From Bryobacterales bacterium (GTDB taxonomy: Bacteria; Acidobacteriota; Terriglobia; Bryobacterales; UBA6623), in contig CBDCFO010000008.1 of assembly GCA_965216215.1 (NCBI GenBank), forward strand, positions 1,750,726 to 1,814,725: a stretch of 64,000 nt of DNA. The letters run 5' to 3'. Shown one piece after another: positions 10,979-48,345 of this stretch. Position 1 is the stretch's first letter. The number at the start of each line of letters is the position of its first letter. The position numbers and the translations under genes were made by a program. The notes beneath the pieces were generated by a model. The model saw only the letters and a list, made by a program, of their open reading frames with translations. It had not been told where the DNA came from and searched no databases.

Positions 10979-11176
10979 CGCTCCGGCCGGTCCGCCAGTA
11001 TCCTTACTATAGGGGGTTTCCGGGGCCCGCGTCCATCGCCGGCACGGGACAGCCGGGAGCTTGCAGCACCGCTGGCTCTCGACTGCGGCAGCCGTGGCTT
11101 CGGTATCGATTCCTGTTGCCCAAGACAGCGTCCTACGCGGGAGCTAGAATGAATTTCGACGCCATACAATGGGGCA

Positions 11177-24734: not shown

Positions 24735-25104
24735 GAGTGCGTGTGCGGGGTGCTGGCTGGGCCGGACGCCAACCGGCGGGCCGGAGAGGTCGGGCCGGAC
24801 GGGACCGCCTCGTTGTTCGGCACGCGGACGGCCCGCTGGTGCGCATGCCTCCGCTCGCGCTGGCGGAGAGAGTGCCGAGTGGACGCGAGATCGGCATGCA
24901 ACCAAAGGAGTTATGCGTGTCCGGGCGGCTCGGTTGCGGGCTCCATGCAACTGCATTCCAGCAATTGCGCCGACCCGCGCATGCAGGCCCCCCGCTGTTT
25001 GCTGGAACACCCGGACAAGCGCCACGGGTGTACGGCCGGAGACGTGGTAACGTTACCTGTTGCAGTGGCATCGGCCGCGGAGCGAGGAGGCGGAAGGAGA
25101 CGGC

Positions 25105-25442
25105 ATGGCCTTGCCGAACGCAGAGAAGCAACGGCGCTAGCGGGAGGGAGACCGGCCGGTCCGCTACCGCCGCCCGCAGGACCGGCGTTCGAATGCCCGG
25201 CGCGGGAGGGAGACCGGCCGGTCCGCTACCGCCGCCCGCAGGACCGGCGTTCGAATCCGCAACGCTGGCGCGACGCGGTGGCGGCCTTGGTGCAGTTGCA
25301 GGAGCACTATGGGGAGTGGCTGGAGAGCCTGCCGGAGAGTCTGCACGGGACGCCGCTGGGGGCGAAGCTGCGGGTGCTTAGCGAGGTGGAGCTCGACGAG
25401 TTGCAAGCCGTCGAGCCGCCGCTGGGCTACGGGCGGGACTGA
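25105..25442 (+). pseudogene. Passenger gene 1 (small basic/helical protein), inactivated
   Basis: GGAG RBS + MALPNAEKQRR, then TAG at 25138-25140; a 62-bp tandem duplication shifts the frame; intact-looking C-half RWRDAVAALVQLQ...EPPLGYGRD. Confidence 0.6.
25140..25256. repeat. 55-bp direct repeat x2, period 62 bp
   Basis: GCGGGAGGGAGACCGGCCGGTCCGCTACCGCCGCCCGCAGGACCGGCGTTCGAAT at 25140-25194 and 25202-25256. Confidence 0.95.
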
Positions 25443-25445
25443 GCG

Positions 25446-25694
25446 ATGAGGCTGCAGGCGGGCAGTGGGGGCTGGTTTGCCGCCGGCGAGGGGTGCGAGC
25501 GGGCGCTGCGGAGATTGAGCGATCCGGCGTTCAAGGTGTTGGCGTACGTGTGCCTGCGGGCCGAGCGGGCCAGCGGGTGGCTGGAGTTCGAGAGCAGCGG
25601 CTTGGCGCGGGAGTTGGGCAGGAGCCGTGCGAGCCTGGGACGCTGCCTGCGCGAGCTGGTCAGCCAGGGGATCTGCGAACTGGAGGCGGCCCCC
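25446..25694 (+). pseudogene. Passenger gene 2 (HTH-like protein), 5' part, interrupted by IS21
   Basis: LARELGRSRASLGRCLRELVSQGIC helix-turn-helix-like segment; continues in frame at 31210 after removing IS21 (ELEAAP|NQHRG). Confidence 0.75.
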
Positions 25695-26028
25695 TGTCCA
25701 GCGACAACTATTCTTGCCGGTGGCGACAACTAGAATTGCCGGTTGTGCTCCGTAAGTTGGAGGGCGGCAGAGGGAGCCCGAAGGGCGACCAATGCAGCCC
25801 TCGGATAGTAGCAGAGGGAGGGGGTAGCAGGGGGAAGCGCAGCCTCCCCCTCTCTGGGAGAGCAAGGCAGTCGGCAGTGCGAGAGGGGCCAGGGGGCGAG
25901 CCCCCTGGCCCGGAATTCGGCGCCGTTGGTCGGCTGCTTTTTTGGCGATCGTGTGACCGCCATAGCGGGGAAAGCGCGCGCGCTGTGGAACCGCCCCGGC
26001 TGGAGGCATTGCTGGAAGCGCTGCACGG

Positions 26029-26799
26029 CTACCTCTTCTCGCTTGCCTCGCCCTGGCGCCGGCGCGCTTGCTCGGCCCGGTAGCTGGCAATATCGAGTTC
26101 CAGAATCACCGAGTGGTGCACCACCCGGTCGACCGCCGCCGCCGCGGTCATCTTGTCAGGGAAAATGCTCTGCCATTGCGAGAAGACCAGATTGCTCGTC
26201 AGCATCACGCTGCGGCGCTCGTAGCGTTGCGCCAGCAGTTCGAAGAGCACTTCCATCTCGGCACGGTCCTGCCGGACGTAGCCGATGTCGTCGAGCAGCA
26301 GGCACTCGAAGCGGTCGAGGCGGTCGAGCTCGCGGCTCAGCCGTAGTTCGCGCTTGGCCCCGGCCAGGCGCTCGGTCAGCGCGCGCGCCGGGGCGAACAG
26401 CGTCGAGTGGCCACGCTGCACCAGTTCGGCACCCAGCGCCGCCATCAGATGGGTCTTGCCCGCGCCCGGATTGCCGAAGACACACACATTGACGGCGTCG
26501 GCCAGGAAATCCCCCTCGCACAGCACTGGCAGGCGGCCCCTCACGCCTTTGGGAAGACGCAGCAAGTCCAGCGTTTCCAGCGTCTTGCCCCGCGGCAGCC
26601 GGGCTTCCTTGGCCAGTCGCGCCACGCGCCGGTCGGCCCGCTCGACCGTCTCGACCGCGGCCAGTTCCGCCAGGTAGCGCAACGGGTCCCAGGCCTGCTT
26701 GCGGGCCTGTTCCGCCAGCCGTTCGCAATGCGCCGCGAACGACGGCAGGCGCAACTCCTTCAGGCGTCCTGGCAGCGCTGCCAGCTCCGGCCCCTTCAC
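26029..26799 (-). CDS. istB: IS21 helper ATPase IstB
   Basis: Walker A GNPGAGKT, Walker B LLLDDIGY, LTSNL, AAVDRVVHH. Confidence 0.93.
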   Translation of the reverse strand: MKGPELAALPGRLKELRLPSFAAHCERLAEQARKQAWDPLRYLAELAAVETVERADRRVARLAKEARLPRGKTLETLDLLRLPKGVRGRLPVLCEGDFLADAVNVCVFGNPGAGKTHLMAALGAELVQRGHSTLFAPARALTERLAGAKRELRLSRELDRLDRFECLLLDDIGYVRQDRAEMEVLFELLAQRYERRSVMLTSNLVFSQWQSIFPDKMTAAAAVDRVVHHSVILELDIASYRAEQARRRQGEASEKR

Positions 26800-27837
26800 G
26801 ACAGCCCCCGCGTGTCCGCCAGCAACTCGTCGTAGACGTCCAGGTCTGGTTCCGCGATGCGCACCTCCGGCGCCTCCGGCCGCGGCGGTGCCGCGGCCGC
26901 CCGGACGCGCTCGAACGACGGCCGCTCGCCAGCCTCCAGGCAGCCCTGCAGGGCCGCCTCCACACGGGTCTCCAGCGTCGTCGCCGCCAAGTGCAGGATG
27001 CGCACGTACTCGAGATCCGCGTGCCCCTGCGAGCGCCCCTCGCAGAGCTTGTCATAGGCCCGCCGGAAGGCCTCTGACGGAAACATCTCCTCGCGGTAGC
27101 GGTATTGCGCGAAGGCCCCCGGCTTGCGCAACAGCGCGTGCGCCACGTGCCGGTAGTCCACCCGGCCCGGCTGCTTGCCCAGCGCCCGGTCGTGGCGCGC
27201 CACCAGTTTCCCGCCGTAGTGCAATTCGACGCGATCGGTGTACAGCCGCGCCGTCAGCTGCTCCCCGATCAGCCGCGACGGCACCGAGTACGCCTTGCTC
27301 GCCACCCGCACCACGCTCCCGCGCGTCACCGTGCGCCGCTCTTCCCGGTACACCGGCAGCCGCCGCGGCGGCAGCGGCCGCAACGCCGCCTGCTCCGCCG
27401 CCAGCCGCTCCCCGCGCCGGCTGTTGCGCTGCCCGGCGATCTCGTCCAGCAACCGCGCGTAGCGCTCCACGGAACTGAAATCGCGTGTCCCGCTCAGGCG
27501 CAGCCGCTGGTCCACCGCGGTCTTGAAATGCCCGTGCGCCGCTTCCACGTCCCCGTTCTCGTGCGCGTTGCCCGGATAGTTCCGGCTCGCCGCCAGCCCG
27601 TAATGCGCCAGGAACTCCTCGTACGCCCGGTTGAACGCCCGCCCGCCGGACTGGCGCAACTCGTGCGTCGCCGCCGACAGATTATCGGTCCGGTGCTCCC
27701 GCGGCACCCCGCCCAGCTCCCACAGGCTCTCCTGCAGTCCGCCGACCAGCGCCTCGAACGTTTCCGAGCTCGCGATCGCCACGCTCTCCCAGTTCGAGTA
27801 CGGCAGCACGAAACGGTATACCAGGTGCTTGTACCGC
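26796..27837 (-). pseudogene. istA: IS21 transposase IstA, 3' part
   Basis: HLVYRFVLPYSNWE, RTDNL, ENGDVE; joins the 5' part in frame across the TSD (GERY|KHLVY). Confidence 0.9.
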
Positions 27838-27854
27838 CTAGCGACCGGACACAC

Positions 27855-27884
27855 TTGACACTGGCGCGGTGTTCTGTGTAGAAC
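27855..27884 (+). promoter_or_regulatory. Probable transposase promoter inside the IS4 left end
   Basis: TTGACA (27855-27860), 18-nt spacer, TAGAAC (27879-27884), just upstream of the GTG start. Confidence 0.5.
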
Positions 27885-27891
27885 GGGGGTA

Positions 27892-30201
27892 GTGCGGGTA
27901 GGGCTGCGCATTTTCCGTCCGCAGACGATCGCTTGGCTGCGAGAGGCATTACAGCTGGGCCAGCTGTCGCGGGCGGCCCTGGGTCGCGGGGTATGCGAGC
28001 GGGAGGACTGGCGCAACCCCAAGGGCGAGTATTGCACGGCCTCGGCGCGCAAGGTGCTGCCCGAGCTGGCCGGCCAGCTGGACCTGCCGCTGCCGCCGGC
28101 CCAGCCGGGTCCGCCCGCCTGCCGCCCGCGGTCCAGCCCGGACCCGCCCGTGCCGTCGACCGGCTTCACCGGCTCGCTGGCGGAACTCGGCGAGGTCCGC
28201 GTGCGTCTGGCCACCTCCGAGGCGGAGCGGCGGCTGTGCGCCGGACTGCTCGACCAGCACCATCCGCTGGGCCCGGGCCGGGCCCCCGGCTGTCGGCTGA
28301 GCTATCTGCTGGCAGCCGATTGCGGGCCGCTGGGCGTGCTCTCGTTCGTGGCGGCAGCGTTCCGGCTGGGGCCGCGCGATGCCTTCCTGGAGTGGGACGA
28401 CCGCACGCGCGGAGCGCACATCGAGCGGATCCTCAGCAACGACCGCTTTGTGCTGGTCCCGGGCGTGCAGGTCCCGAACCTGGCCTCGCACGTACTGGGG
28501 AAGACGATCAAGAGACTGGCCCGGGACTGGGAGCAGGCGCACGGAGTGCGGCCCTGGTTGGTGGAGACCTGCGTGCAAAGTTCGCGACCGGGCACGAGTT
28601 ACAAGGCGGCCGGCTGGCAGTGCGTGGGACCGACGCAGGGGCGGCCGCCGGGAGCGGGCGAGGCGGTGGAGACGAAGGCGGTCTGGCTGCTGGGTTTGGA
28701 TGCGAACTGGCAGCAGCAGCTGTGCCGGAAGCCGGAGCAGAAGCTGGGGCAGTACCCGGAGTTGGTGCTGGACGAGGAGGCGAACTGGGCACGGCGGGAG
28801 TACCTGCGTTCGGACCTGCCGGACGGGCGGCTGCGGCAGCGGCTGGAGCGGCTGGGGCAGAGCTGGGAGCGGCATCCGGGGGAGGATCTGCCGGCAATCT
28901 TCCCGCACCAGGGGGAGCTGCGGGCGGCGACGCGCCTTTTGCACAATGACAAGGTGCAGGATCGGGATATCTTGCAGCCGCACCGGGAGGCGTTGCTGGA
29001 GCGGGTGCAGGTGGAGTCGACAGTGTTGCTGGTACAGGACACGACGACGCTGAACTACACGAACCTGCAGGGTTGCACGAGCGGGTTGGGGCCGTTGCAG
29101 GACCGCGCGAGCAGTTCCCGGGGGCTGTTCGTGCACGCGACGGTGGGGTTCACGGAAGGCGGGCGTCCGCTGGGGGTGAGCGGGCTGGAGCGGTGGGCGC
29201 GGCCGGAGCAGGAGCCGGACCCGGAGGCGGAGCAGGAGCAGGAGAAGGAGAGCCGGCGCTGGTTGCGGGGGTTCGAGCAGGGTCAGGAGTTGGGGCGGGA
29301 GAGTCCGCAGGCGCGGGTCGTGGTGGTGGGGGACCGCGAGAGCGACATGTTCGAATTGTTCGAGCGGCAGGCGGAGCGGACGGAGGAAGCCGGGTTGCTG
29401 GTGCGGGTGCACTTGGGGCGGCAGCGCAAGGTGCGGGCGTGGGACGCGGCGTTCCGCTCGGAGATGATCCGGCCGATCGAGGCGCAGCCGGACTTCGAAG
29501 AGGCGGTGGTGACGGGCCGCAAGGTGGAGATCGAGTCGCAAGGGGGGCAGCGGGCGCGGCAGAAGCGGACGGCGGTGACGGAGATCCGGATCGGGCGGGT
29601 GGAGTTGCTGCCGCCGAAGGGGCGGGCCGGAGCGGTGGCGCCGGTGCCGGTGTGGCTGGTGCGGGTGCTGGAGCCGGACCCGCCGGCGGGGGAGGAGGCG
29701 TTGGAGTGGCTGCTGCTGTCGAGTGAGGGGGGGCGGACAGCGCAGTGGGCGGAGCGCATCGTGAGCTGGTACGAGCGGCGCTGGGGGATCGAGGAGTATT
29801 TCCGGCTGCTCAAGACGGGGACGCGGATCGAGGACCGGCGGTTGCGGGACGCGGAGGCGCTGGGCAAGTGCCTGGTGTTCGACGCGATCACGGCCTGGCG
29901 GGTGTTCAGCCTGGACCGCTACGCCCGGGACGCGCCGGACACGCCGGCGGAGGAGGTGCTCACGGCGGACGAGATGGCCGTGATCGAGGGCGTGACGGAG
30001 ACGGAGCGGTTGCGGCCGCCGCGGGAGCGGGGCCAGCCGGTGGGACCGGGCATTCGCAGTTGGGTCGTGCTGCTGGCGCGCATGCGGGGCTGGCGTCCGA
30101 AGAAGCACCGGGAACTGCCGGGGAACGAGGTGCTGTGGAAGGCGTACCAGCAACTGCAAACGATGGTGCGCTATCGGCAGGCGCTGCGAGGACCGCCGTA
30201 G
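27892..30201 (+). CDS. DUF4338 (DruA-like) domain fused to an IS4/Tn5-type DDE transposase, 769 aa
   Basis: N-part QHHPLG...LSNDRFVLVPGVQVPNLASHVLG...VETCV...YKAAGW...GPTQGR; C-part QDTTTL, VGDRESD, YERRWGIEEYFRLLK (YREK). Confidence 0.85.
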   Translation: MRVGLRIFRPQTIAWLREALQLGQLSRAALGRGVCEREDWRNPKGEYCTASARKVLPELAGQLDLPLPPAQPGPPACRPRSSPDPPVPSTGFTGSLAELGEVRVRLATSEAERRLCAGLLDQHHPLGPGRAPGCRLSYLLAADCGPLGVLSFVAAAFRLGPRDAFLEWDDRTRGAHIERILSNDRFVLVPGVQVPNLASHVLGKTIKRLARDWEQAHGVRPWLVETCVQSSRPGTSYKAAGWQCVGPTQGRPPGAGEAVETKAVWLLGLDANWQQQLCRKPEQKLGQYPELVLDEEANWARREYLRSDLPDGRLRQRLERLGQSWERHPGEDLPAIFPHQGELRAATRLLHNDKVQDRDILQPHREALLERVQVESTVLLVQDTTTLNYTNLQGCTSGLGPLQDRASSSRGLFVHATVGFTEGGRPLGVSGLERWARPEQEPDPEAEQEQEKESRRWLRGFEQGQELGRESPQARVVVVGDRESDMFELFERQAERTEEAGLLVRVHLGRQRKVRAWDAAFRSEMIRPIEAQPDFEEAVVTGRKVEIESQGGQRARQKRTAVTEIRIGRVELLPPKGRAGAVAPVPVWLVRVLEPDPPAGEEALEWLLLSSEGGRTAQWAERIVSWYERRWGIEEYFRLLKTGTRIEDRRLRDAEALGKCLVFDAITAWRVFSLDRYARDAPDTPAEEVLTADEMAVIEGVTETERLRPPRERGQPVGPGIRSWVVLLARMRGWRPKKHRELPGNEVLWKAYQQLQTMVRYRQALRGPP

Positions 30202-30648
30202 CAGCCCGCGCCGGGGCGGGCGGGGAGTGTCTGGTGGAACGGCATCCGCCGGTTCTCCGCAGGGGGCCGTCAGGGGGGAGTGCAGAACTCTCCCATGGAG
30301 GCACTGTCGTGGGCAGGGAAGCTTCTCGCCAGGGCTTGATGCGTGCCGCGTGTCGGGAACACCTTGGCGCAGCTCGAAGTCTGCCCGCTGTTCCCCAGTG
30401 ATCCGTTTTCCCAACCAATGCGTGACGGCCGAATGGGACCCATTCGCAACGCAATGACCGGAATGGCAACGCTGGCCGTGCAGCCCCAACCCGGTTCCGC
30501 CCGATGCGTGCGTCTGTCGTGCTGCGCTGGTCTCCCTCGTCTCGCCCCCCAGTATGCGGGCGGCCCATCCGGCACCATCAAGACCGAATGTGAGCATCAA
30601 TCCACGATTGCCTCGAAACTTCCAGCATCAACTATGTCCGGTCGCTAG

Positions 30649-31109
30649 TTGTACCGCTCGCCCCGGATCGTCACCCCCAGCGCGCCCATGTCGGTGAAGT
30701 CCGACTGGCACTGCGCCCCCGGCTCCCGCTCCTGCTCGAAATAGACTTCCCGGTCCGGACCCTGCCGCACGCGCCAGGCCCGGAATCGCCGCTGCAACGT
30801 CCGCAACTGCCCGGACTGCAATTGCCCCGGATGGCGCCGCTGCAGCTCCTCGAACACCACCTTCGCCTGCAGCCCCGGGTCCGCTCGCAGCAGGGCCTCC
30901 GCCTCTGGCCACAGCGCTTCCAACGGATCCTCCCGCGTCCGCCAGTGCCGCGCTGGACTGGGGTCGCTCGGAAGCTTCCCGCTATCGCGCCATTTGCGAG
31001 CCGTGCGCTCGCTCATGCCCGCTTTCGCCGCCGCCGTTGCCAGCGGCTTGTTCCTTCTTAGTTCCTTCATCAGTAGCCTCACTTGTTGGTTTTTGATCAA
31101 CGCCTCCAC
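30649..31109 (-). pseudogene. istA: IS21 transposase IstA, 5' part
   Basis: AAAKAGMSERTARKW HTH, WRTREDPL, LRTLQRR, QSDFT. Confidence 0.9.
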
Positions 31110-31203
31110 CCTCCCTGGGAAGGGTCGAGTCTAGCCGCCAACTACGAGGCTCACCCGGAACTTTTAATTGTCGTTACCCGGAATTTCTAATTGTCGCTGG
31201 ACA

Positions 31204-31743
31204 GCCCCCAACCAGCATCGCGGTTCGCGCTTGCGGGTGCGGGAGGAGTACTGGCCCTACGAGGGCCGGACGGAGGCGGCGGCGCGGACCGCGGCAGGTG
31301 CGGCCGGGGAGGTGGGTGCGTATGTCGAGCGGGTGCGGGAGATGTGCAGCAAGCCCGCCTGCGTGCAAGCTGGATTCGGGCCCGCCGACGAGCGTCTGGC
31401 GGCGGACTGGCAGCGAGCCGGGGTGAGTCTCGAAACGGTGCGGCGGGCGATCCTGCTGGGCAGCGTACGGCAGTTGACGAGCATGATCGACCGGCCTGGG
31501 AGCGAGCCGGTCCGCAGCCTGCGCTATTTCGCCGGTCTGGTGGAGGAAGTGCGCCAGGAGAGGCTGTCCGCTGGTTGCTGGAAGCACTTGGAGATCTCAC
31601 TCGAGCGCTGCGAACGGTACTGGCGGTCGCGGACCGAGCAAGTTGCGGGGCGTGCCTGTTCAGATTTGGACCAAGCAGCCCCTCTCGGAGGGGGCGAGAT
31701 CCCCTCAGCGGTCAAGCAAGAGCAAGACGAGCAGACGGGATGA
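31204..31743 (+). pseudogene. Passenger gene 2, 3' part
   Basis: PNQHRGSRLRVREEYWPY...VRRAILLGS...RSLRYFAGLVEEV; in frame with the 5' part. Confidence 0.75.
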
Positions 31744-31766
31744 TGATGATCTCCAATTGAGGTACA

Positions 31767-33777
31767 GTAGAGTCGGGGAGCGACGCGCGCACCTTAGCAA
31801 AGAGGCAGTAGCCGTTTGGGAGTAGTCCTACGGCTTTCGCCATGTGTAGGTGCCTCACTGGCCCTCTCGCCTAGCCACGTTTCCGCGCCCCGCTCGTCAA
31901 ACCGGACGTGCGGCTTTCCCGCATCCGGCTTTCAGTGCAGATCATGCCTTCGCCCACGGAAGGCTCTTGGTCGTCTGCGTCAGGCGCACGAGGCCGTACT
32001 CACCGTACAGCCGGGCGTCCGGGAACAGCACGTATTGCCCGGACTTCACCTTGTGTTTCCGACAGAGCCACTGGCGCAGCCGCCGGACCGCGTGGCGGTC
32101 AATCGCGTTGTACGCCGGACTCACCTGGCCCAGATGGAAGTAGTTCGCCCATCCGGTTAGGCACCGGTTCAGGCGTTCTACCATTTCCTCCCGGGTCAGT
32201 TGCCCGCTCCTCGGCGATGTCCGCTCGCTGATCTTGCGGCAGATGCTCTGGACGCTAGCCTTGCTTGGGCGGGTGCCGATATACGGTCCTTTCCCGCTGG
32301 GCCTGTAGTTGCGTCCTATGCGGTATCCGAGGAACTCGAACGGCTCCTCCGGGCACCGCAGGCATCGGGTCTTCCGTTCGTTGACCGGCAGTTTCAGCTT
32401 CCGCATCAGCCGCTGGACTTCCTCGAGCATTGCTGCTGCCGGAGCCCTGCCGAGCACGCAGAAGTCATCCGCATAGTTCACGATCTCCGCTCGGAAGCGC
32501 TCGGCGTGTCCCCGCACCTTCCAGCCCAGGATGAAGCGCCGCATGTAGAGGTTGCTGAGCAGAGGCGAGATCGGAGCCCCTTGCGGGGTCCCTTTCCGTG
32601 CCTGCCTCGCCCGGTTCGTGCGGTGTTTGCCGCCCTTGCCGTCATCCTCCTCCACGGCCATCTCCAGCCACGCCTTGACTAACCCCAGCAAGCGCCCGTC
32701 GCTCACGCGTCGGGCCACGCTCCGGAGCAGTTCGGCGTGCGGGATCTCTCCGAAGTAATTCGACAGATCGCCGTCAACCACTTCATTGCATCCCTTCCTC
32801 AGCAGGCTGTGGACGCGGCTCACCGCGTCGTTCGCGCTGCGTCCCGGCCGGTAGGCGTGCTGCTCCGGTTGCAGGTCCGCTTCGATGATCGGTGCCAGCA
32901 CCAGCAGGGCTGCCGTCTGCGCTACCCGGTCCCGGATGCAAGGTATGCCCAAGGGCCGGAACTTGCCGGGCTGCTTCTTCGGGATCAGCACCTGTCGCAC
33001 CGGTTGCGGTGCGTAGGTGCCGTCCTGCAGCTCCCTTGCCAGTTCCCCGAGCCACGCTTCCGCCCCTCGCTCCTCGATGTCGACGAAGCTCTCCCGGTCC
33101 ACTCCAGCACTGCCGCCGTTCCGGCGGACCTGCGCCAAAGCCTCCCGCAGGATATCCTCCCGCCACATCTTGTCGCTCAGCGCATGGAACCGTCGCCCCG
33201 GTTCTTCCTTCGCTTTCGCATGTAGCACGGTCTGGAGTTTCCGAACCCTAGCTGGCCCTGTTAGACGTTCGTCAGTGGCCATGCCTTGCCTCCTTTCCGT
33301 ACCTCTCTGCACTCAAGGCCCCTTCCCTCCACGGGCATTACCCCGCCTCTGCGGTAGTACGGGCCTATCCGCCACCCTGCCCGGCCCGGCCTGCCCCTCG
33401 CGGGGCTCCGGTTGATGCGTGCTGCATCACCGGCAGGGCTTCCCGTGTTGCTGCTTCCTTCCTCTTCCATGCGTGCCAGCGCCATTACCCCGGCGGGCGC
33501 GGGTCGGTGCCTGTGACGCTCTCTTCCCAACCCGCCGTCGGCCTTCCCCCTAATCACGAAAGGGTCGGCTCCCGCGTTAAATGTTTCGAGGCCTGCTCGG
33601 CGTTCACTCGCGTTCTAGCCCGCATGCTCGCTGAGCCGCCCAAGGCGGCCCTTTGACACCAGAGTGCTTCAGCCCATTTCGTTACCTCCATGAACCGCCC
33701 TGGCTGCTACCAGCCGGAGCATCAGTTGCTGGACGGGATTCGCACCCGCTGAATGGAAGCGCCTTTCCACGGCGCAC
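31767..33777 (-). mobile_element. Group II intron (2,011 nt) with RT/maturase
   Basis: 5' end GUGCG (33777); domain V AAGCCGGAUGCGGGAAAGCCGCACGUCCGGUUU; domain VI ending CCCCGACUCUAC (31767). Confidence 0.93.
31942..33282 (-). CDS. ltrA: Group II intron reverse transcriptase/maturase (no endonuclease domain)
   Basis: RPLGIPCIRDR, GTPQGAPISPLLSNLYM, YADD, FEFLGY, domain X LTGWANYF; ATG 33282 behind AGGAGG. Confidence 0.93.
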   Translation of the reverse strand: MATDERLTGPARVRKLQTVLHAKAKEEPGRRFHALSDKMWREDILREALAQVRRNGGSAGVDRESFVDIEERGAEAWLGELARELQDGTYAPQPVRQVLIPKKQPGKFRPLGIPCIRDRVAQTAALLVLAPIIEADLQPEQHAYRPGRSANDAVSRVHSLLRKGCNEVVDGDLSNYFGEIPHAELLRSVARRVSDGRLLGLVKAWLEMAVEEDDGKGGKHRTNRARQARKGTPQGAPISPLLSNLYMRRFILGWKVRGHAERFRAEIVNYADDFCVLGRAPAAAMLEEVQRLMRKLKLPVNERKTRCLRCPEEPFEFLGYRIGRNYRPSGKGPYIGTRPSKASVQSICRKISERTSPRSGQLTREEMVERLNRCLTGWANYFHLGQVSPAYNAIDRHAVRRLRQWLCRKHKVKSGQYVLFPDARLYGEYGLVRLTQTTKSLPWAKA

Positions 33778-33886
33778 GCAGTTCTCAATTTGGCCTTTTT
33801 CTATCTCGCGAGCCGCTGAGGGGCCGGTAGCAAGGGACCAGTTTCTGGGGGCTTAACTTTGCGGACACCGCTTTCAAACATAAAAT

Positions 33887-35215
33887 GTGCCCTCCGTTTC
33901 CAATTCCCGGGTGCTCGATTCCCTTCTGGACCGCTTCCAACAAGCCGCCTCCGCCCTGCCCGACCCCCGGACCGGCTCCAACAAGCGCTACGCCGTCTCC
34001 GATGCCGCTGTCTGCGCCCTCTCCACGTTCTTCTTCCAGTCCCCCTCCTTCCTCGACTTCCAGCGCCGCATGCACGAGGAGTCCGCCCGCTCCAACTGCC
34101 ACTCCCTCTTCGGCGTCAGCAAGATTCCGAGTGACAATCAGATTCGGAATCTGCTCGACGGTCTCGACCCCTCCCTGTTCGCCGACCTGTTCCCCCTCTG
34201 CCTCGACACCGTCCGCGACCAAGGGGGCCTCGACGGGATCCAGTTCCATGGCTCGGACTCCATCCATTGCGAGCAGTGCTCCACCCGCCATGTCGGCAAG
34301 CACAAAACCAAGCAGTTCTTCCACACCATGCTCTCGGCCACTGTCGTCGCCGACGGCCACAACCGCGTCCTCCCGCTCATGCCGCTGTTCGTCCAGCCCC
34401 AGCACGACCCCGCCGCCAACCGGCCCGACCTGACCGAAGACCAGCGCAAGCAGGATTGCGAGCGCAACGCTGCCAAGCGCTGGCTGCCCGCCCACAGCCC
34501 CGCTCTGCGCCCCTACCGGCCGGTCCTGCTCGGCGACGATCTGTACTGCTGCCAGCCCCTCTGCAAACTCGTCGCCGACCTCGGCGCGGACTTCCTCTTC
34601 ATCTGTAAGCCCAGCAGCCACAAGACGTTATACAAACAGCTCCCCAACCGCCGCATCTGGTCCACTGGCTGGATCCGCACCCGCAACCACCGCCAGCAGA
34701 TCGAGTCCCATCGCTACCAGTGGAGAAACAACGTGCCGCTGCGCGCCGGCGACGACGCCCTGAAGGGCACCTGGATCGACTTCGAGATCGGCCGCAACGG
34801 CGAGCGCACCTACCACAATTCGTGCTTCACCCGCCTCAAGGTCACCGCTGACAACGTGGCCGCGATCGCCCGGGCGGGCCGCGCCAGATGGAAAATCGAG
34901 AACGAGCAGTTCAACTGCTTGGCGCGGCAGGGCTACAACCTCAAGCACAACTGCGGGCACGGCCGCCAGGGCCTGGCCAATCTGCTCGCCACGCTGAACC
35001 TGTTCGCCTTCGCGCTGCATGCGGTCCTGGACTGCGTGTCCGACCTGTGGCGGCAATGTCGGGCGCGCGTCGGCACCCGGCGCAAGTTCTTCGCGACCCT
35101 GGGCTTCCTCACGGAGTGGTTCTGCTTCCGCAGTTGGACCGCCCTGTTCGAGACCGTGTTGAGGAAGCGCCCGCCACCGCCCGCTCCCGGGGCGGCCGCG
35201 TGCGCCCCCGCATGA
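33887..35215 (+). CDS. ISNCY-like DDE transposase
   Basis: LPDPRTGSNKRY, IPSDNQIRNLLD, LDG, GDDLY, GRARWKIENE; may carry a short in-frame deletion before the first Asp. Confidence 0.8.
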   Translation: MPSVSNSRVLDSLLDRFQQAASALPDPRTGSNKRYAVSDAAVCALSTFFFQSPSFLDFQRRMHEESARSNCHSLFGVSKIPSDNQIRNLLDGLDPSLFADLFPLCLDTVRDQGGLDGIQFHGSDSIHCEQCSTRHVGKHKTKQFFHTMLSATVVADGHNRVLPLMPLFVQPQHDPAANRPDLTEDQRKQDCERNAAKRWLPAHSPALRPYRPVLLGDDLYCCQPLCKLVADLGADFLFICKPSSHKTLYKQLPNRRIWSTGWIRTRNHRQQIESHRYQWRNNVPLRAGDDALKGTWIDFEIGRNGERTYHNSCFTRLKVTADNVAAIARAGRARWKIENEQFNCLARQGYNLKHNCGHGRQGLANLLATLNLFAFALHAVLDCVSDLWRQCRARVGTRRKFFATLGFLTEWFCFRSWTALFETVLRKRPPPPAPGAAACAPA

Positions 35216-41845: not shown

Positions 41846-42259
41846 TCAATCCGCGGTGGTGCGTTCGACGAGTTCGAGCAATACTCCCCCGGCACTGGCC
41901 GGATGAACGAATACATAACGATACCCTTCCGCGCCGATTCGGATCTTGTCGACCACCAACCGCCGGCCCGAACGGCGCACGGCCTCGGCGGCGGCCTCGA
42001 TGTCCTCAACCTGCAACGCGAGATGGTGCATGCCCTCGCCGCGACGCTCGAGGAAACGGGCAATCACGGAATCGCCCGAGGTTGGTTCCAGCAGTTCGAT
42101 GCGGCCGCCACCGGCCGGCAGCATAGCTGCTTCCACATGCTCCGGCTCGACCCGGGCGCGGTGCACCGGCTCGACCCCTAGCACGTCGTGGTAGAACTCC
42201 AGTGCCCGGTCGATCGAGCGCACGGCAATGCCAATGTGGTCAATGGTCATCGATTCCAT
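41846..42259 (-). CDS. mce: Methylmalonyl-CoA epimerase
   Basis: IDHIGIAV, IELLEP, GEGMHHLA, FVHP, GGVLLELVE. Confidence 0.9.
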   Translation of the reverse strand: MESMTIDHIGIAVRSIDRALEFYHDVLGVEPVHRARVEPEHVEAAMLPAGGGRIELLEPTSGDSVIARFLERRGEGMHHLALQVEDIEAAAEAVRRSGRRLVVDKIRIGAEGYRYVFVHPASAGGVLLELVERTTAD

Positions 42260-43173
42260 TGTTGCTGCAAACGCTCCAGAATCTGCTGGGCATAGGCATA
42301 CGGGTTCAACGATCCCGTGGCTACCGCCTCGGCGGCATCGTCTAGGTCTAGACCCGATCCAAGACCCGCAGCCAGCATTCCCTGAAACTCGCCTCCGATA
42401 CGGCTCAGCAGGAGCCGCTTCCAGTAGTCGACGTCAGGACGCCGCGATTCGGCGGTTCGCAGTTCAGCTAGCAACTCGCCGACCCCCTCGCAACGGATGG
42501 CGGCTGTGCGCAAAACAGGCGGCTTGGCGCGGCCATGGGGGGTTAGCGAAATCATTGCAAGAAGCTGTCGCTCCAACTCGTCGGCCCCCGGCTGGTCGGC
42601 CTTGTTGATGACGAACAGATCGGCGATCTCCATAATGCCAGCCTTGGCGGCCTGGATGTCATCGCCAGTCGCGGGAGTCAGGACTACGGCGACTGTCCCG
42701 GCCACTTGCATGACATCAACCTCGCTCTGCCCCACGCCCGCCGTTTCGATCAGCACGGCATCGTGCCCAGACGATTCAAGGAGCGTCAACGCTTCGCTTA
42801 CTGCGGGAGCGAGACCTCCAAGCTCCCCTCTCGAGGCCATCGAGCGAATGAACACGCCGGAATCGGCGTGATGCCGCTGCATGCGCACCCGGTCCCCTAG
42901 CACTGCACCGCCACTGAAAGGGCTGCTTGGATCGACAGCCAGGATCGCGACCCTAGCCCCCTCGTGGCGCAGCTCCGCCGCGATGCAGTCGACGAGCGTG
43001 CTCTTGCCCACGCCAGGGGCGCCGGTGATGCCAATCCGCAGGACTCCGCCTCCCGGCCGATGCAAGTCGACGAGCAGGGCGCCAGCCTCGGGCAAGCGAT
43101 TCTCGATCAGGGTCAGCCCGCGCGCCAATGCCCGAGGATCGCCGCTACGGATCCGCTCCGCGAGAACGCTCAT
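42247..43173 (-). CDS. meaB: Methylmalonyl-CoA mutase-associated GTPase
   Basis: GITGAPGVGKSTL, AVDPSSPFSGGAVLGDRVRM, FIRSMASRG, ETAGVGQSE, NKAD. Confidence 0.93.
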   Translation of the reverse strand: MSVLAERIRSGDPRALARGLTLIENRLPEAGALLVDLHRPGGGVLRIGITGAPGVGKSTLVDCIAAELRHEGARVAILAVDPSSPFSGGAVLGDRVRMQRHHADSGVFIRSMASRGELGGLAPAVSEALTLLESSGHDAVLIETAGVGQSEVDVMQVAGTVAVVLTPATGDDIQAAKAGIMEIADLFVINKADQPGADELERQLLAMISLTPHGRAKPPVLRTAAIRCEGVGELLAELRTAESRRPDVDYWKRLLLSRIGGEFQGMLAAGLGSGLDLDDAAEAVATGSLNPYAYAQQILERLQQQWNR

Positions 43174-43361
43174 TGAATGACTCCCCCCGGCTTGATGCGA
43201 CGGGGCATCGCCGGACGGGGCGGCCGGAAAGCTAGTGCAAGTGGCCACGGGGGTTTCATGCTGCCGGAACTCCCGATTGTAGGCCCCGCAGCACGAAGCG
43301 GTCGGACATGCCGATCGTCGGCTTCGGCTGGAACCGCGGCGGTACACTGAGAAAAGCTCGA

Positions 43362-46300
43362 GTGCAGAGGAAGGCATCCAAGGTAAGTGCAGTAGTCGCC
43401 GAAAAGCCATCGGTCGCCCGCGACATTGCCAAGGCACTGGGCGCAAGCGAACGCGCGAATGGATATTTCTCTGGCGACGGCTTGATCATTACCTGGGCAA
43501 TCGGCCATTTGGTGCAATTGGCCGAGCCGCATCAAATCAATCCCGCGTGGAAAGCTTGGCGGCGTTCCGCGCTTCCCATCCTGCCTCAGGAATGGCCGTT
43601 GGTCGTTGACGAGGGCCGCAGCGACCAGTTCGAAGTCGTCAAGAGGATTCTCACGAGTTCCCGCGTCGGGCGCGTGGTCTGCGCAACAGATGCAGGGCGG
43701 GAGGGTGAACTCATCTTCCGTCAGCTCTACGAGGCGGCAGGCTGCACGAAACCCGTGGATCGCCTGTGGATCTCGTCCTTGACGCCCGCGGCGATTCGCG
43801 ACGGCTTCTCGCAACTCCGTCCTTCGCGGGAGTTTGACAATCTCGGAGACGCCGCCCGCGCCAGGAGCCGCGCCGACTGGCTGGTCGGAATGAATCTCAC
43901 GCGGGCATACACCCTGGATCACAGTCCGCGCGAAATGGGCAGTTCCGAGGTGCTTTCTGTCGGCCGGGTCCAGACACCGACGCTGGCAATGCTCGTGGAA
44001 AGGGAGATCGCGATTCGCGACTTCGTTCCGGAGGACTACATCGAGGTCCTGGCTGACTTCGACGCCGGCGAGAACCGCGTCTATCGCGGGACGTACTTCA
44101 AGATCGAGAAAGGCAAGCGCCAGACGCGCCTCTCGGCCGACGGCAAGCAAGCTGCGGCAATCCTCGATCGCGCCAGGCTCGGGCAAGCGGACATAGAATC
44201 CGTGAGGAAAACTCCCAAGCGCCTGTCGCCGCCTTTGCTGTACGACCTCACGGAATTGCAGCGGCACGCCAACCGGCTGTACGGCTTCAGCGCTAGCCGG
44301 ACCTTGGAACTGGCGCAGCTGCTGTACGAGAAGCATAAGGCGATCACGTACCCCCGAACGGACAGTCGGCACCTCTCGTCCGCAATCGCGAGCCAGCTGC
44401 CGGGAATCGCCGGGCGTGTCGCCCGAGAGTTCGACAGCAGCCTCGTGGCCGAAGGGACCGGCACGCGACCGCTCGGCCAGCGCTACATCGATGACTCGAA
44501 AGTTACGGACCACCACGCGATCATCCCGACTGGTGCGGGCGGTTCTGCCGTGGACCGCAATGCGCCGGAGGCGAAGATTCTCGACCTAGTGAACCGCCGA
44601 TTGCTGCAGGCGTGGCATGGCGACCACAAGTTCTCGTCCACTACGGTGATCACGCGGATCGTCCACAAGGCCGACGCCGACCAGTACTTGTCTATCGGCA
44701 CCGCAGTCGATGACCCGGGCTGGAAGGTCCTGGACGTACCGTCGGCCCGCATGGGCCGCTCGGTCGAGGAGCCGAGACTGCCGGGGAGCTTGGCAACAGG
44801 TCAGCGAGTCGCCCTGCTCAAGGCCGAGGCCATCAAGAAGCAAACCCGACCACCGCCGCGATTCACCGAGGGGACGCTGCTGACAGCGATGGAATCGGCA
44901 GGCAAGACGCTCGATAGCAAGCAGCTCTCGGACGCGATGAAGGAACGCGGGATCGGAACGCCCGCCACACGTGCCTCGATTATCGAAACACTGCTCAAGC
45001 GAGGGTATATAACCCGGGACAAGAAGCAGTTGAGCGCAACATCCAAGGGCATACAGCTCTTGGAGATCGTCCACCCCAAGGTCCGGAGCCCGGAGATGAC
45101 CGGCGAATGGGAATCGAAGCTGCGTGCGATCGAACGCGGCCGGGGCGGCTTTGAAGCGTTCATGCAGGGGATCGAGGATTTCGTTCGCGAGGTCGTTGGT
45201 ACCGGCGAGGGCGGCGTGTCGGCCTCCCCCGTGCAAGCAGCGAAACGCAGGGCCGCCGCCGATGAGTCGGAATTCACCTCCGAGCTACCGCCCGTCGAAG
45301 TCCTAGAATCGGAGCCGTCCCGGCGCCCTGCGGCGCCGCCAGAGCAACAGAAAGCGGCCACGGACAGTCCCCCGACCCGTCGCAGGGAATCGGCGGAAGC
45401 GATCGGATCCGCCTCCGAGGCCCGGCAAGACATGACGAATGGGCGGCTGCGATCTCTCGTGTCGCGAACGCCCGCGCAGGCGGCGCCCGTCGCAGTCCGC
45501 GCAGGCCCGGCGGCACCTCCCCGGATTCCGCCCGAGGCTCTGGGTGAGCTCCTGCGAAGTCGATTCGGCCACGACAGTTTCCGGCCCCATCAGGAAGACG
45601 TCTGCCGCCAAGTTACCGCCGGCCGGGACGTCCTGGTCGTGATGCCCACCGGAGCCGGCAAGTCGCTGTGCTACCAGCTCCCGGGAATCGCGCGCGGCGC
45701 GACGACCCTCGTGATCAGTCCGCTGATCGCGTTGATGGAAGACCAGACAGAGAAGCTAAGGCAGCAGGGGTTCAAGGCGGAGCGCATCCACTCCGGCCGG
45801 GATCGACTGGAATCTCGCCGGGTCTGCAAGGAATACCTCGAAGGCGAGCTTGACTTCCTGTACATTGCGCCGGAACGGCTCGCAGTGCCGGGCTTCCCGG
45901 AATTTCTGGCCCGCCGGACGCCGGGTCTGGTCGCTATTGACGAAGCGCACTGCATCTCGATGTGGGGCCACGACTTTCGACCGGAATACCGGCGTTTGCG
46001 CGAGCGCATTCCGACGCTACGGCCGGCCCCCGTGATTGCTCTGACGGCAACGGCCACGCCGCTCGTCCAGCGGGACATCGTGCAGCAGCTCGGCCTGGTT
46101 GATTGCGACCGCTCCATCCACGGCTTCCGGCGCGACAATCTGGAGATCGAGCTCGTTGAGCTCCCCCCGTCGTTGCGCCCGCCGGCGCTAGTGCGCCTGC
46201 TGCGGGATGAGGCCCGCCGGCCGGCGATCGTTTACGCGCCGACGCGCAAGGCGTCCGAGGAGCAAGCCGAAGCCTTGCAGGGCGGACTGCGCGCCGCCGC

Positions 46301-47597
46301 ATACCACGCCGGCATGGAAGGAGAGCAGCGCGACCGGGTCCAGACCGCGTTCCTCTCCGGCGATCTCGACATCATCGTCGCGACAATCGCCTTCGGCATG
46401 GGCATTGACAAGCCCAACGTCCGCAGCGTCGTCCACACTGGCCTGCCGGGATCGATCGAGAGCTACTACCAGGAAATCGGCCGCGCGGGGCGTGACGGCC
46501 TGCCCTCGAAGGCGATCCTGCTGCACTCGTGGGCGGACCGCAAGACTCACGAGTTCTTCCTCGACCGGGACTACCCCGAACCGGCGGTGCTCATGGGCCT
46601 CTTCAGCGCCCTGAAGGCCAAATCGGTCCCGATGGCGGAACTCCGGGATGGATTCAGGGGCGAGCCGCAGAAGTTCGAGACCGCGATCGAGAAGCTTTGG
46701 ATTCATGGCGGCGTGCAGATTGACGAGAACGATAACGTCTCTCCCGGGGACGCCGTTTGGCACGAGAAGTACATCCGGCAGCGGGACCACAAGATCGAGC
46801 AGCTCGACCTCGTGACAAACTTCACGCGATCCCAACAATGCCGCATGCTCGACCTCGTGCGGCACTTCGGCGACCTCGAGGACTCGCTCAAGCCGTGCGA
46901 GCACTGCGATATCTGCGATGCGGAAGGCTGCGCCGTCAAGACCTTCCGGTCGGCCACAACGCAAGAAACCAAGGTCGTCGACTCGGTGCTGTGGTCGTTG
47001 CGGGACCATGACGGCCAGTCCGTCGGGAAGCTGTTCCGGGATTGGGCCGAGCCTGTCAAGCTCCAGCGCACCGCCTACGAGCGGTTGATCGACGCGTTGG
47101 TGCGAGCGGATCTCGCACGCATTGAGAATGATTCGTTCGTCAACAGGGAGGGTCAGCTCATCGAGTTCCGGAGACTCGCACTGACGGCCGAGGGCCGCCA
47201 GACATCGAATCCCGCCCGCTTGGTCAAACTGCCCGCCGAGGGCGCCGGCCTGGCGCGCGGCCCGAATCTCAAGCGCGCAAAGAGTCAGTCCCGGAAACGC
47301 AAGCCCTCCCAGCGAAACGGGAAGCCGACTGGGAAGCAATTGCGGCTGGACGAGGTGCCCGCCCGAGACGGGGCAGATGAACTGCTCATGGCAGGACTGC
47401 GGGCATGGCGCAAGACCGAGGCACAGAGACAGGCAGTGCCCGCGTTCCGGATCTTTCCTAACCGGACATTGGAAGCCCTCGTGGAAGCAAAGCCGGCTAA
47501 TGAAGCCGAGCTGCTCACGGTGTCGGGCATCGGACCGGCCGTCGCGAAAAAATACGGAGCTAAACTTCTCCAGGTCATCCGAACCGCGAGCGATTGA
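43362..47597 (+). CDS. Fusion: DNA topoisomerase III - linker - RecQ helicase - RQC - HRDC (about 1,410 aa; start uncertain)
   Basis: AEKPS, ATDAGREGE, GRVQTPTL, catalytic ITYPRTDS; then MPTGAGKSLCYQ, DEAH, GHDFRP, TATA, GMGIDK, QEIGRAGRDG, Zn-Cys cluster, HRDC; no internal stop. Confidence 0.92.
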   Translation: MQRKASKVSAVVAEKPSVARDIAKALGASERANGYFSGDGLIITWAIGHLVQLAEPHQINPAWKAWRRSALPILPQEWPLVVDEGRSDQFEVVKRILTSSRVGRVVCATDAGREGELIFRQLYEAAGCTKPVDRLWISSLTPAAIRDGFSQLRPSREFDNLGDAARARSRADWLVGMNLTRAYTLDHSPREMGSSEVLSVGRVQTPTLAMLVEREIAIRDFVPEDYIEVLADFDAGENRVYRGTYFKIEKGKRQTRLSADGKQAAAILDRARLGQADIESVRKTPKRLSPPLLYDLTELQRHANRLYGFSASRTLELAQLLYEKHKAITYPRTDSRHLSSAIASQLPGIAGRVAREFDSSLVAEGTGTRPLGQRYIDDSKVTDHHAIIPTGAGGSAVDRNAPEAKILDLVNRRLLQAWHGDHKFSSTTVITRIVHKADADQYLSIGTAVDDPGWKVLDVPSARMGRSVEEPRLPGSLATGQRVALLKAEAIKKQTRPPPRFTEGTLLTAMESAGKTLDSKQLSDAMKERGIGTPATRASIIETLLKRGYITRDKKQLSATSKGIQLLEIVHPKVRSPEMTGEWESKLRAIERGRGGFEAFMQGIEDFVREVVGTGEGGVSASPVQAAKRRAAADESEFTSELPPVEVLESEPSRRPAAPPEQQKAATDSPPTRRRESAEAIGSASEARQDMTNGRLRSLVSRTPAQAAPVAVRAGPAAPPRIPPEALGELLRSRFGHDSFRPHQEDVCRQVTAGRDVLVVMPTGAGKSLCYQLPGIARGATTLVISPLIALMEDQTEKLRQQGFKAERIHSGRDRLESRRVCKEYLEGELDFLYIAPERLAVPGFPEFLARRTPGLVAIDEAHCISMWGHDFRPEYRRLRERIPTLRPAPVIALTATATPLVQRDIVQQLGLVDCDRSIHGFRRDNLEIELVELPPSLRPPALVRLLRDEARRPAIVYAPTRKASEEQAEALQGGLRAAAYHAGMEGEQRDRVQTAFLSGDLDIIVATIAFGMGIDKPNVRSVVHTGLPGSIESYYQEIGRAGRDGLPSKAILLHSWADRKTHEFFLDRDYPEPAVLMGLFSALKAKSVPMAELRDGFRGEPQKFETAIEKLWIHGGVQIDENDNVSPGDAVWHEKYIRQRDHKIEQLDLVTNFTRSQQCRMLDLVRHFGDLEDSLKPCEHCDICDAEGCAVKTFRSATTQETKVVDSVLWSLRDHDGQSVGKLFRDWAEPVKLQRTAYERLIDALVRADLARIENDSFVNREGQLIEFRRLALTAEGRQTSNPARLVKLPAEGAGLARGPNLKRAKSQSRKRKPSQRNGKPTGKQLRLDEVPARDGADELLMAGLRAWRKTEAQRQAVPAFRIFPNRTLEALVEAKPANEAELLTVSGIGPAVAKKYGAKLLQVIRTASD

Positions 47598-47727: not shown

Positions 47728-48345
47728 ATGCCCACCCATTGCACTTGCGGGAGCCCATTGCCGGAGGGGGCATCCTTCTGCCCGAATTGCGGGCGGCCCC
47801 TGGCTCCCGGCATCGGCGAGCCGGCTGCTCCGCCGCAAGAGCCCGTCAAAGAGGAACCGCCTGTGCAGAACTGGCGGCGCTCGGAAGCTTTCTTGAAGGC
47901 CTCGCTGATCCCAGCTCTATGCGCAATCTTCCTGCGGGTTGTCCTTGTCGCGCCGACCCCCCTGTCCATGCTGTTCTCGTACTTGATTCCGGCATGCGCG
48001 GGATACGCGGCGGTTCGGATTTTTGAGAAGCGGTACATCAGTTTGCCGAAGATCTCGATGGGCGGTGCGTTGGGCTTGCTCACCGGGATGCAATGCGCGC
48101 TCGCTTTCTTGATCCTGAACTCGATGGTGATCATGTCCCAAGGCAAGGAAGTGCTCCTGGCACCTCTGCGCGACCATCCCGAAATGAGTTCCATGGCGCC
48201 GCAAGTCGCGGAAGCGCTAGAGCATCCCGGGACATTTGTGACGGCCGTCGCAATCGCGTTCTTCGTTGACGCAGCGCTCGTCGCAGGCTCGGCGGCGGCC
48301 GGTGGGGCGGTCGCGGTAAAGGTGGCTCGCAGCCGTCCTCGATAG
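47728..48345 (+). CDS. Zinc-ribbon-domain membrane protein
   Basis: CTCG...FCPNCG N-terminus followed by about four TM helices. Confidence 0.75.
   Translation: MPTHCTCGSPLPEGASFCPNCGRPLAPGIGEPAAPPQEPVKEEPPVQNWRRSEAFLKASLIPALCAIFLRVVLVAPTPLSMLFSYLIPACAGYAAVRIFEKRYISLPKISMGGALGLLTGMQCALAFLILNSMVIMSQGKEVLLAPLRDHPEMSSMAPQVAEALEHPGTFVTAVAIAFFVDAALVAGSAAAGGAVAVKVARSRPR

Follow-up and report, generated by a model that had tools for sequence, protein, structure and literature searches.

Introduction

Do a RecQ helicase and a topoisomerase III (Topo III) work as one machine when they are encoded as a single chain? The question is raised by one gene in a 64,000-nucleotide stretch of DNA from a Bryobacterales bacterium (Acidobacteriota; assembly GCA_965216215.1, contig CBDCFO010000008.1, positions 1,750,726 to 1,814,725 of the forward strand), referred to here as the window. 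In this gene one reading frame runs through a Topo III, a linker, a RecQ helicase and an HRDC domain. The partnership of RecQ and Topo III is conserved from bacteria to humans, in whom loss of BLM causes Bloom syndrome, and the physical and kinetic coupling of the RecQ helicase and the topoisomerase is still debated.

We find that the fusion is real, widespread and strongly conserved. The protein is probably a tethered helicase–topoisomerase, in which a Topo III is flexibly joined to a RecQ-family 3'-5' helicase and both are catalytically competent; its activities, coupling and substrates are those that we infer. The first-pass annotation of the sequence called it a 'covalent dissolvasome', and such a function is a reasonable inference. 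The family is abundant in databases as 'DNA topoisomerase 3', yet uncharacterised; it is not categorically new and does not overturn current understanding.

The gene and its extent

The gene occupies 43362..47597 on the + strand, starts with a GTG at 43362 and encodes 1411 amino acids followed by a stop codon; all domain numbering refers to this 1411-residue protein. The frame is open from 43308 to the stop codon at 47595-47597 and would give 1429 amino acids if counted from the first ATG. The N-termini and lengths of the closest homologues, P0002 (1412 amino acids) and P0003 (1411 amino acids), both of which begin MQ(G/K)KAS.VSAVVAEKPS, agree with the GTG start, and the 18 extra residues from the upstream in-frame ATG at 43308 have no support in any homologue. 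No stop or frameshift is present anywhere in the open reading frame (ORF), which is one uninterrupted frame through Topo III, linker and RecQ as the first-pass annotation had read it. The linker was the place where that annotation would have looked for a break; none is seen there, and the frame is kept in 126 homologues with linkers of 16-201 amino acids. Motif and linker counts given below are from the alignment of these 126 fused sequences.

The topoisomerase III half

The N-terminal half comprises a TOPRIM domain (amino acids 10-139, 43389..43778, + strand; Pfam Toprim, 8.5e-10) and a type IA topoisomerase toroid (amino acids 158-612, 43833..45197, + strand; Pfam Topoisom_bac 158-601, 4.6e-106). 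The toroid is modelled by AlphaFold with a predicted local distance difference test score (pLDDT) mostly above 90. Over its full length this half can be aligned with E. coli Topo III (1D6M, E 4.6e-87). The Topo III had been described as complete, and it passes the curated NCBIfam cut-offs of both the NF005829 'DNA topoisomerase 3' model (645.9 bits, cut-off 597) and the TIGR01056 topB model (566.8 bits, cut-off 515.75).

The catalytic tyrosine is Tyr330 in the motif ITYPRTDS (44349..44351, + strand), which aligns with Y328 of E. coli Topo III; the first-pass annotation had placed it correctly at nucleotide 44349, where codon 330 begins. All motif variants listed among the 126 fused sequences retain the YPRT core; two sequences have YPRTGS (Gly for Asp), and both [IL][TS]YPRTDS and DHHAI are near-invariant. 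Topo III is distinguished from Topo I by a lysine after the TOPRIM glutamate and a proline after the catalytic tyrosine, according to a 2024 review (PMC10969213). Both markers are present here, as E14-K15 and Y330-P331, and are conserved in the fused family. Glu14-Lys15 lies in the TOPRIM motif AEKPS, of which AEKP is kept in 115 of 126 fused homologues. Amino acids 512-528 (44895..44945, + strand) align to residues 502-519 of E. coli Topo III, which we take to be its decatenation loop. This segment has a single one-residue gap against 1D6M and is conserved within the fused family.

The acidic motif of the TOPRIM domain, canonically DxDxE, reads D-A-G-R-E (amino acids 110-114, 43689-43703, + strand). 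The second aspartate of DxD(xE) is thus a glycine (DxG), and two of the three acidic residues are retained. The surrounding TDAGREGE (D110, G112, E114) is kept in 124 of the 126 fused homologues, and DAGREGE is also found in nearly all of the closest stand-alone Topo III cluster representatives. An inactivated TOPRIM was considered and rejected on this ground: since nearly all of the closest stand-alone enzymes carry the motif, DxG is probably a subfamily signature and not a lesion. It appears to be a subfamily-wide departure from the textbook Mg-binding triad.

The RecQ half

The C-terminal half begins with a RecQ helicase core of two RecA-like domains (amino acids 726-1060, 45537..46541, + strand; Pfam DEAD 741-899, 2.9e-27, and Helicase_C 942-1046, 3.7e-24). 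It carries the Walker A motif TGAGK767S, DEAH at 860-863, the aromatic-rich loop CISMWGHDFRPEY and motif VI, QEIGRAGRDG. The closest solved structure to the core is E. coli RecQ (1OYW, E 1.4e-95). A Zn-binding subdomain follows (amino acids 1061-1190, 46542..46931, + strand; Pfam RecQ_Zn_bind 1129-1185, 5.1e-07), with Cys1160, 1179, 1182 and 1185. DEAH is present in all 126 fused homologues, and TGAGKS, the aromatic-rich loop, QEIGRAGRDG and the four Zn cysteines are near-invariant.

The Zn motif aligns with that of E. coli RecQ only after about 65 extra residues. This insertion (approximately amino acids 1074-1130, 46581-46751, + strand) lies inside the Zn-binding subdomain, after the second RecA-like domain and before the Cys cluster, and corresponds to an alignment gap between E. 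coli RecQ residues 345 and 362. It is helical or winged-helix-like and confidently modelled, and is absent from E. coli RecQ; it is common to the fused and stand-alone RecQ proteins of the clade, with the same spacing.

The Zn-binding subdomain is followed by an RQC winged-helix domain (approximately amino acids 1195-1296, 46944..47249, + strand), a second disordered linker that is strongly basic (amino acids 1297-1338, 47250..47375, + strand) and the HRDC domain (amino acids 1339-1411, 47376..47594, + strand; Pfam HRDC 1343-1406, 1.4e-19), which is a helical bundle in the model. The net charge of the spacer between RQC and HRDC is positive in all 126 homologues (median +9).

The Pfam RQC model has no match in the protein. 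We therefore rely on structure for this domain. The AlphaFold model of residues 620-1411, built from an alignment of 45 family members, has a mean pLDDT of 80 and a predicted template modelling score (pTM) of 0.75. It is disordered at 620-715 (the linker) and at 1311-1334 (the basic spacer before HRDC, pLDDT <50) and confident elsewhere; helices and a beta-hairpin at model positions 581-655 (pLDDT >90) make up the predicted winged helix. By Foldseek the model covers the whole E. coli RecQ core of 1OYW (TM 0.70, target-normalised, 593 columns) and aligns with BLM, including HRDC, over about 725 columns. Because the model and the Foldseek alignment span the whole 1OYW core, the winged helix named in the first-pass annotation is supported at the level of the predicted fold only.

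The protein passes the TIGR00614 recQ_fam model (390.4 bits, cut-off 219.8) and fails the models for E. coli-type RecQ equivalogs, TIGR01389 (500.7 against 640.2 bits) and NF008279 (400.6 against 1015 bits). These scores place the RecQ half in a distinct clade of the RecQ family, not with E. coli-type RecQ equivalogs. The earlier description of a 'full RecQ' stands in so far as the protein is RecQ-family with a four-cysteine Zn site, a winged helix and HRDC; it does not stand as to type, for the protein fails TIGR01389 and has the extra insertion of about 65 amino acids.

The linker between the two enzymes

The two halves are joined by a disordered linker of 113 amino acids (613-725, 45198..45536, + strand). 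A linker of about 100 residues rich in Pro, Ala and Ser had been proposed, which fits the composition found (A21, P16, R13, E12, S12); it is Arg/Glu-rich as well. Across the 126 homologues the linker has a median length of 90 amino acids and is always in frame. The family linkers are rich in P, A, G, S and R and are mildly basic in 74% of members. Column conservation is 0.00-0.12 in the bins that lie fully within the linker (amino acids 621-720), and no conserved motif was found in it by column conservation of the family alignment. Compared with L001, the closest locus in species-representative genomes, the linker DNA is 67% identical with one 3-nucleotide indel. The linker thus appears, from sequence comparison, to be constrained in frame only and not in sequence.

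In an AlphaFold model of residues 1-1195 both bodies have a pLDDT of about 90 and residues 616-716 are below 50. The pTM falls from 0.75 for the RecQ half alone to 0.55 for this model of Topo, linker and RecQ core. A pTM of 0.55 is about the value expected when only one of two rigid bodies superposes, which suggests that their relative orientation is not fixed; judged by pTM, AlphaFold predicts no confident fixed interface between the Topo and RecQ bodies. The drop in pTM and the 16-201 residue range of linker lengths are weak evidence for a flexible tether rather than a fixed interface like that of reverse gyrase. With no linker motif and no predicted interface, coupling would rest on proximity alone.

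Distribution and conservation of the fusion

The best 120 matches in a collection of 5.8 billion proteins all have the same Topo-to-RecQ architecture, at 49-100% identity. They belong to Bryobacterales, Bryobacteraceae, Thermoanaerobaculia and metagenome-assembled genomes (MAGs) of Acidobacteriota, and carry the database name 'DNA topoisomerase 3'. A HMMER search over 1.84 billion cluster representatives found fused proteins in 57 of the best 150 clusters (50% identity), all with Topo before RecQ. Many Bryobacterales among the species-representative genomes, complete chromosomes included, have a full-length fused ORF, and the closest, L001 (OZ242259.1), is 85% identical.

The first-pass annotation mentioned fused annotations in Acidobacteria and myxobacteria. 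These exist, and the fusion is also found in Bdellovibrionota, Oligoflexia and a planctomycete: outside Acidobacteriota, fused ORFs are present in Bdellovibrionales/Bdellovibrio (L023, L024, L035), Myxococcota (L036), Oligoflexus (L039) and one Planctomycetaceae MAG (L034). The phyla keep both the fusion and its domain order at identities as low as about 36-45%.

The ratio of nonsynonymous to synonymous substitution rates between the window gene and L001, calculated by the Nei-Gojobori method, is 0.08 for Topo, 0.11 for the RecQ core and RQC, 0.12 for HRDC and 0.79 for the linker. These values indicate strong purifying selection on both enzyme halves. The pairwise identities of the two halves are correlated over 7750 pairs (r = 0.87) and have similar means (65% and 63%), which fits inheritance of the halves together as one gene. 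In neighbour-joining trees the fused Topo domains fall largely apart from a large group of stand-alone Topo III, and fused and stand-alone RecQ are intermixed; both trees are star-like, unsupported and contaminated by gene fragments.

In one Bryobacterales MAG (L028) the gene looks like separate topo and recQ ORFs that overlap in the linker. We rejected this as a natural split gene because it is a scaffold gap: 10 N's lie in the linker-coding region at about 11950-12000, flanked by long poly-C/poly-G. Short reads appear to assemble poorly across the G+C-rich, low-complexity linker, which can then look like a split gene.

Stand-alone relatives and other fusions of the RecQ clade

The nearest stand-alone Topo III clusters are 41-60% identical to the fusion over the topoisomerase region and have DAGREGE and YPRTD in common with it. 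Where the fusion has RecQ they have instead Toprim_Crpt or zinc-ribbon C-terminal repeats, so RecQ takes the place that in other type IA enzymes belongs to a variable C-terminal DNA-binding domain. The nearest stand-alone RecQ proteins, from Myxococcota, Oligoflexales and one Bryobacterales, share 43-59% identity, the Zn insertion and HRDC with the fusion. In place of Topo III they have short N-terminal extensions, a zinc ribbon or a Ser/Thr kinase, with or without Sel1 repeats.

The Bryobacterales member of this group is found on a chromosome (L030, OZ245359.1), where the locus orthologous to the fusion encodes at 9776-12046 a 756-residue RecQ with an N-terminal zinc ribbon that replaces Topo III. 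At least one lineage can therefore do without the fusion. The zinc ribbon, MDARCSCGFPVPQGANFCSNCG, is very similar to the N-terminus of the conserved zinc-ribbon membrane protein encoded downstream of the fusion gene (window 47728-48345, MPTHCTCGSPLPEGASFCPNCG). This resemblance hints that a rearrangement removed Topo III in L030.

Two further proteins carry the same RecQ clade behind an N-terminal Ser/Thr kinase and have no topoisomerase: P0167 (1037 amino acids) and P0162 (1400 amino acids), the latter with nine Sel1 repeats in addition. Their RecQ is 64-66% identical to the RecQ half in the window. These fusions imply that close relatives have a RecQ that works with no covalent link to a Topo III. 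P0061, encoded at L027 8861-13384 in a Bryobacterales genome that also carries a normal fusion (L003), has a Ser/Thr kinase (1-298) in place of TOPRIM, followed by a truncated toroid, RecQ and HRDC. As this second paralogue is without TOPRIM, its topoisomerase part probably has no catalytic activity. The variants show that different modules can precede RecQ in this clade and that the link to Topo III can be lost; the clade seems to serve as a hub for fusions at the N-terminus.

Genomic context

Upstream of the fusion gene, and divergent from it, are genes for a MeaB-type GTPase, a glyoxalase, a GAF-SpoIIE phosphatase and uroporphyrinogen decarboxylase. The fusion gene is followed on its own strand by genes for the zinc-ribbon membrane protein, a MerR-TPR protein and a HAD hydrolase. 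Across about 30 Bryobacterales loci this gene order, with its metabolic and regulatory neighbours, is conserved. In Bdellovibrionota, Oligoflexia and Myxococcota the neighbours are housekeeping genes unrelated to these, and across the inspected loci of different phyla no gene for a partner such as SSB, an RMI1-like protein or a nuclease recurs. The fusion is a true housekeeping gene of the chromosome. The 64-kb window encodes no other Topo III or RecQ, and the surroundings of the fusion gene yielded no convincing promoter or terminator.

As called, the ORF of the MeaB-type GTPase (42247-43446, - strand) runs into the 5' part of the fusion gene. The Pfam domain of the GTPase begins only at residue 106, and its homologues are mostly about 306-390 amino acids long. 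The real start is probably near 43170, which would leave a divergent intergenic region of about 190 nucleotides.

Elsewhere in the window, a mobile-element cluster lies at 23880-35215, with a G+C content of 0.69-0.72 at 24-30 kb against about 0.62 elsewhere. It includes an IS3-type integrase (23880-24734, + strand), an IS21 IstB ATPase (26029-26799, - strand), an ORF of 882 amino acids without a Pfam match (27949-30600, - strand) and a DDE transposase (33887-35215, + strand). The cluster further contains, on the - strand, a group II intron identified by Rfam (RF02003 at 33608-33751 and RF00029 at 31767-31933), which encloses a reverse transcriptase/maturase ORF (31942-33312).

Alternative explanations

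Several points weigh against a tethered helicase–topoisomerase. The TOPRIM motif reads DxG and not DxD, though this is common to nearly all of the nearest stand-alone Topo III. The linker has no conserved motif and modelling predicts no fixed interface. At the orthologous locus of L030 the RecQ stands without a Topo III, and the same RecQ clade is fused to Ser/Thr kinases as well. A protein whose enzymes are only co-expressed, on one chain or cleaved apart, and act independently would be expected to benefit from fusion through equal dosage. The unconserved and nearly neutral linker of highly variable length, the want of a confident interface between the modules, RecQ alone at the syntenic L030 locus, the kinase-RecQ variants and the intermixing of stand-alone and fused RecQ in the crude neighbour-joining tree would all suit such a protein. 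We nevertheless consider it unlikely. The order is kept across phyla to about 36-45% identity and the frame is kept through many linker indels, the two halves have co-evolved at the same rate, and no protease site or intein-like element is seen. RecQ and Topo III are moreover known to function as a pair, and their proximity should therefore be important. The protein also places a superfamily 2 helicase and a type IA topoisomerase on one chain, as reverse gyrase does, and has weak local similarity to the topoisomerase part of that enzyme (TIGR01054, 112.8 bits; 1GKU). It might then be a mesophilic analogue in which the helicase drives a directional change in supercoiling, for example the introduction of positive supercoils. 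This is improbable, for the TIGR01054 score is far below the cut-off of 471.7, the domain order is reversed (Topo then helicase), and the helicase is a true RecQ with Zn, winged-helix and HRDC domains and not a latch-bearing, non-unwinding module. A flexible tether of 16-201 amino acids and a pTM of 0.55 also contrast with tight inter-domain packing, and the hosts are Bryobacterales and other non-thermophilic lineages.

A different role was suggested by the PADLOC model PDLC02865 'DpdF' (1499 positions), which matches residues 3-1292 with 1476 bits and would make the protein a DpdF-like helicase of an anti-phage, DNA-modification-dependent defence system. A match of this extent implies that PDLC02865 itself has the Topo III-RecQ architecture. 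PADLOC models are without a curated cut-off and depend on system context; the curated NCBI model for DpdF, NF041063, gives 188.9 bits against a cut-off of 550. No Dpd component or recognisable defence gene is present among the 19 neighbouring proteins scanned or at the other loci inspected, the loci of four other phyla have unrelated housekeeping neighbours, and chromosomal synteny is stable across Bryobacterales. Membership of a Dpd defence system was rejected on the NCBI curated cut-off and the gene context, and we regard a DpdF-like function as very improbable. The 'DpdF' label of PDLC02865 looks over-inclusive and could give false defence-system calls. Finally, a misjoined contig or a hidden frameshift could have fused adjacent genes in the assembly or its annotation. 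The window is probably from a metagenome assembly and the relative in L028 appears split, but that split is the N run with its poly-C/poly-G flanks inside the linker. The same continuous ORF is present in well over 100 independent assemblies, complete chromosomes included, and selection acts at the codon level along the whole ORF, which makes an artefact of this kind hardly conceivable.

Comparison with known systems

The E. coli RecQ and TopB proteins, which act with SSB, belong to the same two enzyme families as the fusion, with the catalytic tyrosine and the decatenation-loop segment aligned. The expected chemistry, by analogy, would also be the same: the helicase makes single-stranded DNA and the type IA enzyme passes strands. 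They differ in that the E. coli enzymes are separate proteins and the protein in the window is covalently tethered. We know of no stable RecQ-Topo III complex shown in E. coli or other bacteria. The Topo half of the fusion differs from the E. coli enzyme in that it belongs to the NF005829 (PRK07726-type) subfamily, has a DxG TOPRIM and is without the C-terminal DNA-binding tail or Zn-ribbon repeats.

The eukaryotic dissolvasome (Sgs1-Top3-Rmi1 or BLM-TOP3A-RMI1-RMI2) resembles the fusion in that a RecQ with RQC and HRDC domains is physically coupled to Topo III, and BLM structures are among the best fold matches to the RecQ half. In the eukaryotic complexes, unlike the fusion, the coupling is non-covalent, through the disordered N-terminus of RecQ and the OB-fold subunit RMI1. 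Neither in the fusion protein nor among the ten flanking proteins scanned was an RMI1-like OB-fold domain found. The Topo half is bacterial in type, and its similarity to TOP3A is only about 1e-18.

Reverse gyrase is the only well-known natural single-chain fusion of a helicase and a type IA topoisomerase. The first-pass annotation noted that the order of domains is opposite to that of reverse gyrase, and the Pfam matches confirm this (Topo then helicase). Reverse gyrase also has a latch, has no Zn, winged-helix or HRDC domains, is tightly packed and is found in thermophiles only. One passage of a 2020 paper on reverse gyrase describes hyperthermophiles as having 'uniquely' fused helicase and topoisomerase units (PMC7245102).

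Full-text literature searches found no description or study of a natural Topo III-RecQ fusion, although their coverage is incomplete and absence is not proven. The fusion is unmentioned in the 2024 review of type IA diversity (PMC10969213), in a 2009 phylogenomic review (PMC2647321) and in a 2022 survey of the C-terminal domains of microbial type IA enzymes (PMC9369019).

Proposed mechanism

We propose that the RecQ winged helix and HRDC would recognise DNA that is branched or partly unwound, for example at converging forks, hemicatenanes or double Holliday junctions. The ATP-driven 3'-5' RecQ motor would then unwind or branch-migrate the DNA and expose single strands, which type IA enzymes require. 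Topo III, tethered within a few nanometres, would cleave one strand via Tyr330, pass the other through its gate and reseal. Interlinks would in this way be removed one at a time, from late replication intermediates, hemicatenanes and double Holliday junctions. The tether would give a 1:1 stoichiometry and a high local concentration, and may take the place of the adaptors of other systems, which are the N-terminus of Sgs1/BLM together with RMI1 in eukaryotes and SSB in E. coli.

The proposal builds on the known biochemistry of the separate E. coli enzymes and of the Sgs1-Top3-Rmi1 and BLM-TOP3A-RMI complexes. Work by Harmon in 1999 is said to have shown that E. coli RecQ stimulates catenation and decatenation by Topo III. 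Bennett and Wang reportedly engineered a Top3-Sgs1(deltaN) fusion in 2001, which has the same N-to-C order as the natural protein. E. coli RecQ and Topo III resolve converging forks (Suski and Marians 2008, as cited in PMC2647321).

The fusion could be more than the sum of its parts, that is, a self-sufficient, ATP-coupled type IA unlinking machine in mesophiles, in which translocation by RecQ gates or directs strand passage by Topo III. We hold this to be a doubtful extension of the tethered helicase–topoisomerase. If true, it would allow processive, directional decatenation or dissolution, or even ATP-dependent supercoiling, without SSB or an RMI1-type cofactor. It would also be a second, independent evolutionary solution to helicase-topoisomerase coupling beside reverse gyrase, and the kinase fusions would mark the RecQ clade as a modular hub that recruits effectors to branched DNA.

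Implications

The Topo III-RecQ fusion corrects the view of reverse gyrase as the unique natural fusion of such modules, as that view is worded in the passage on hyperthermophiles (PMC7245102). A one-polypeptide, adaptor-free bacterial protein offers a model in which dissolution and decatenation can be studied by structural and single-molecule methods. The natural fusion is genetic 'Rosetta-stone' evidence that RecQ and Topo III act together in bacteria. It also suggests that simple tethering is an evolutionarily sufficient form of coupling, in parallel with the engineered Top3-Sgs1 fusion.

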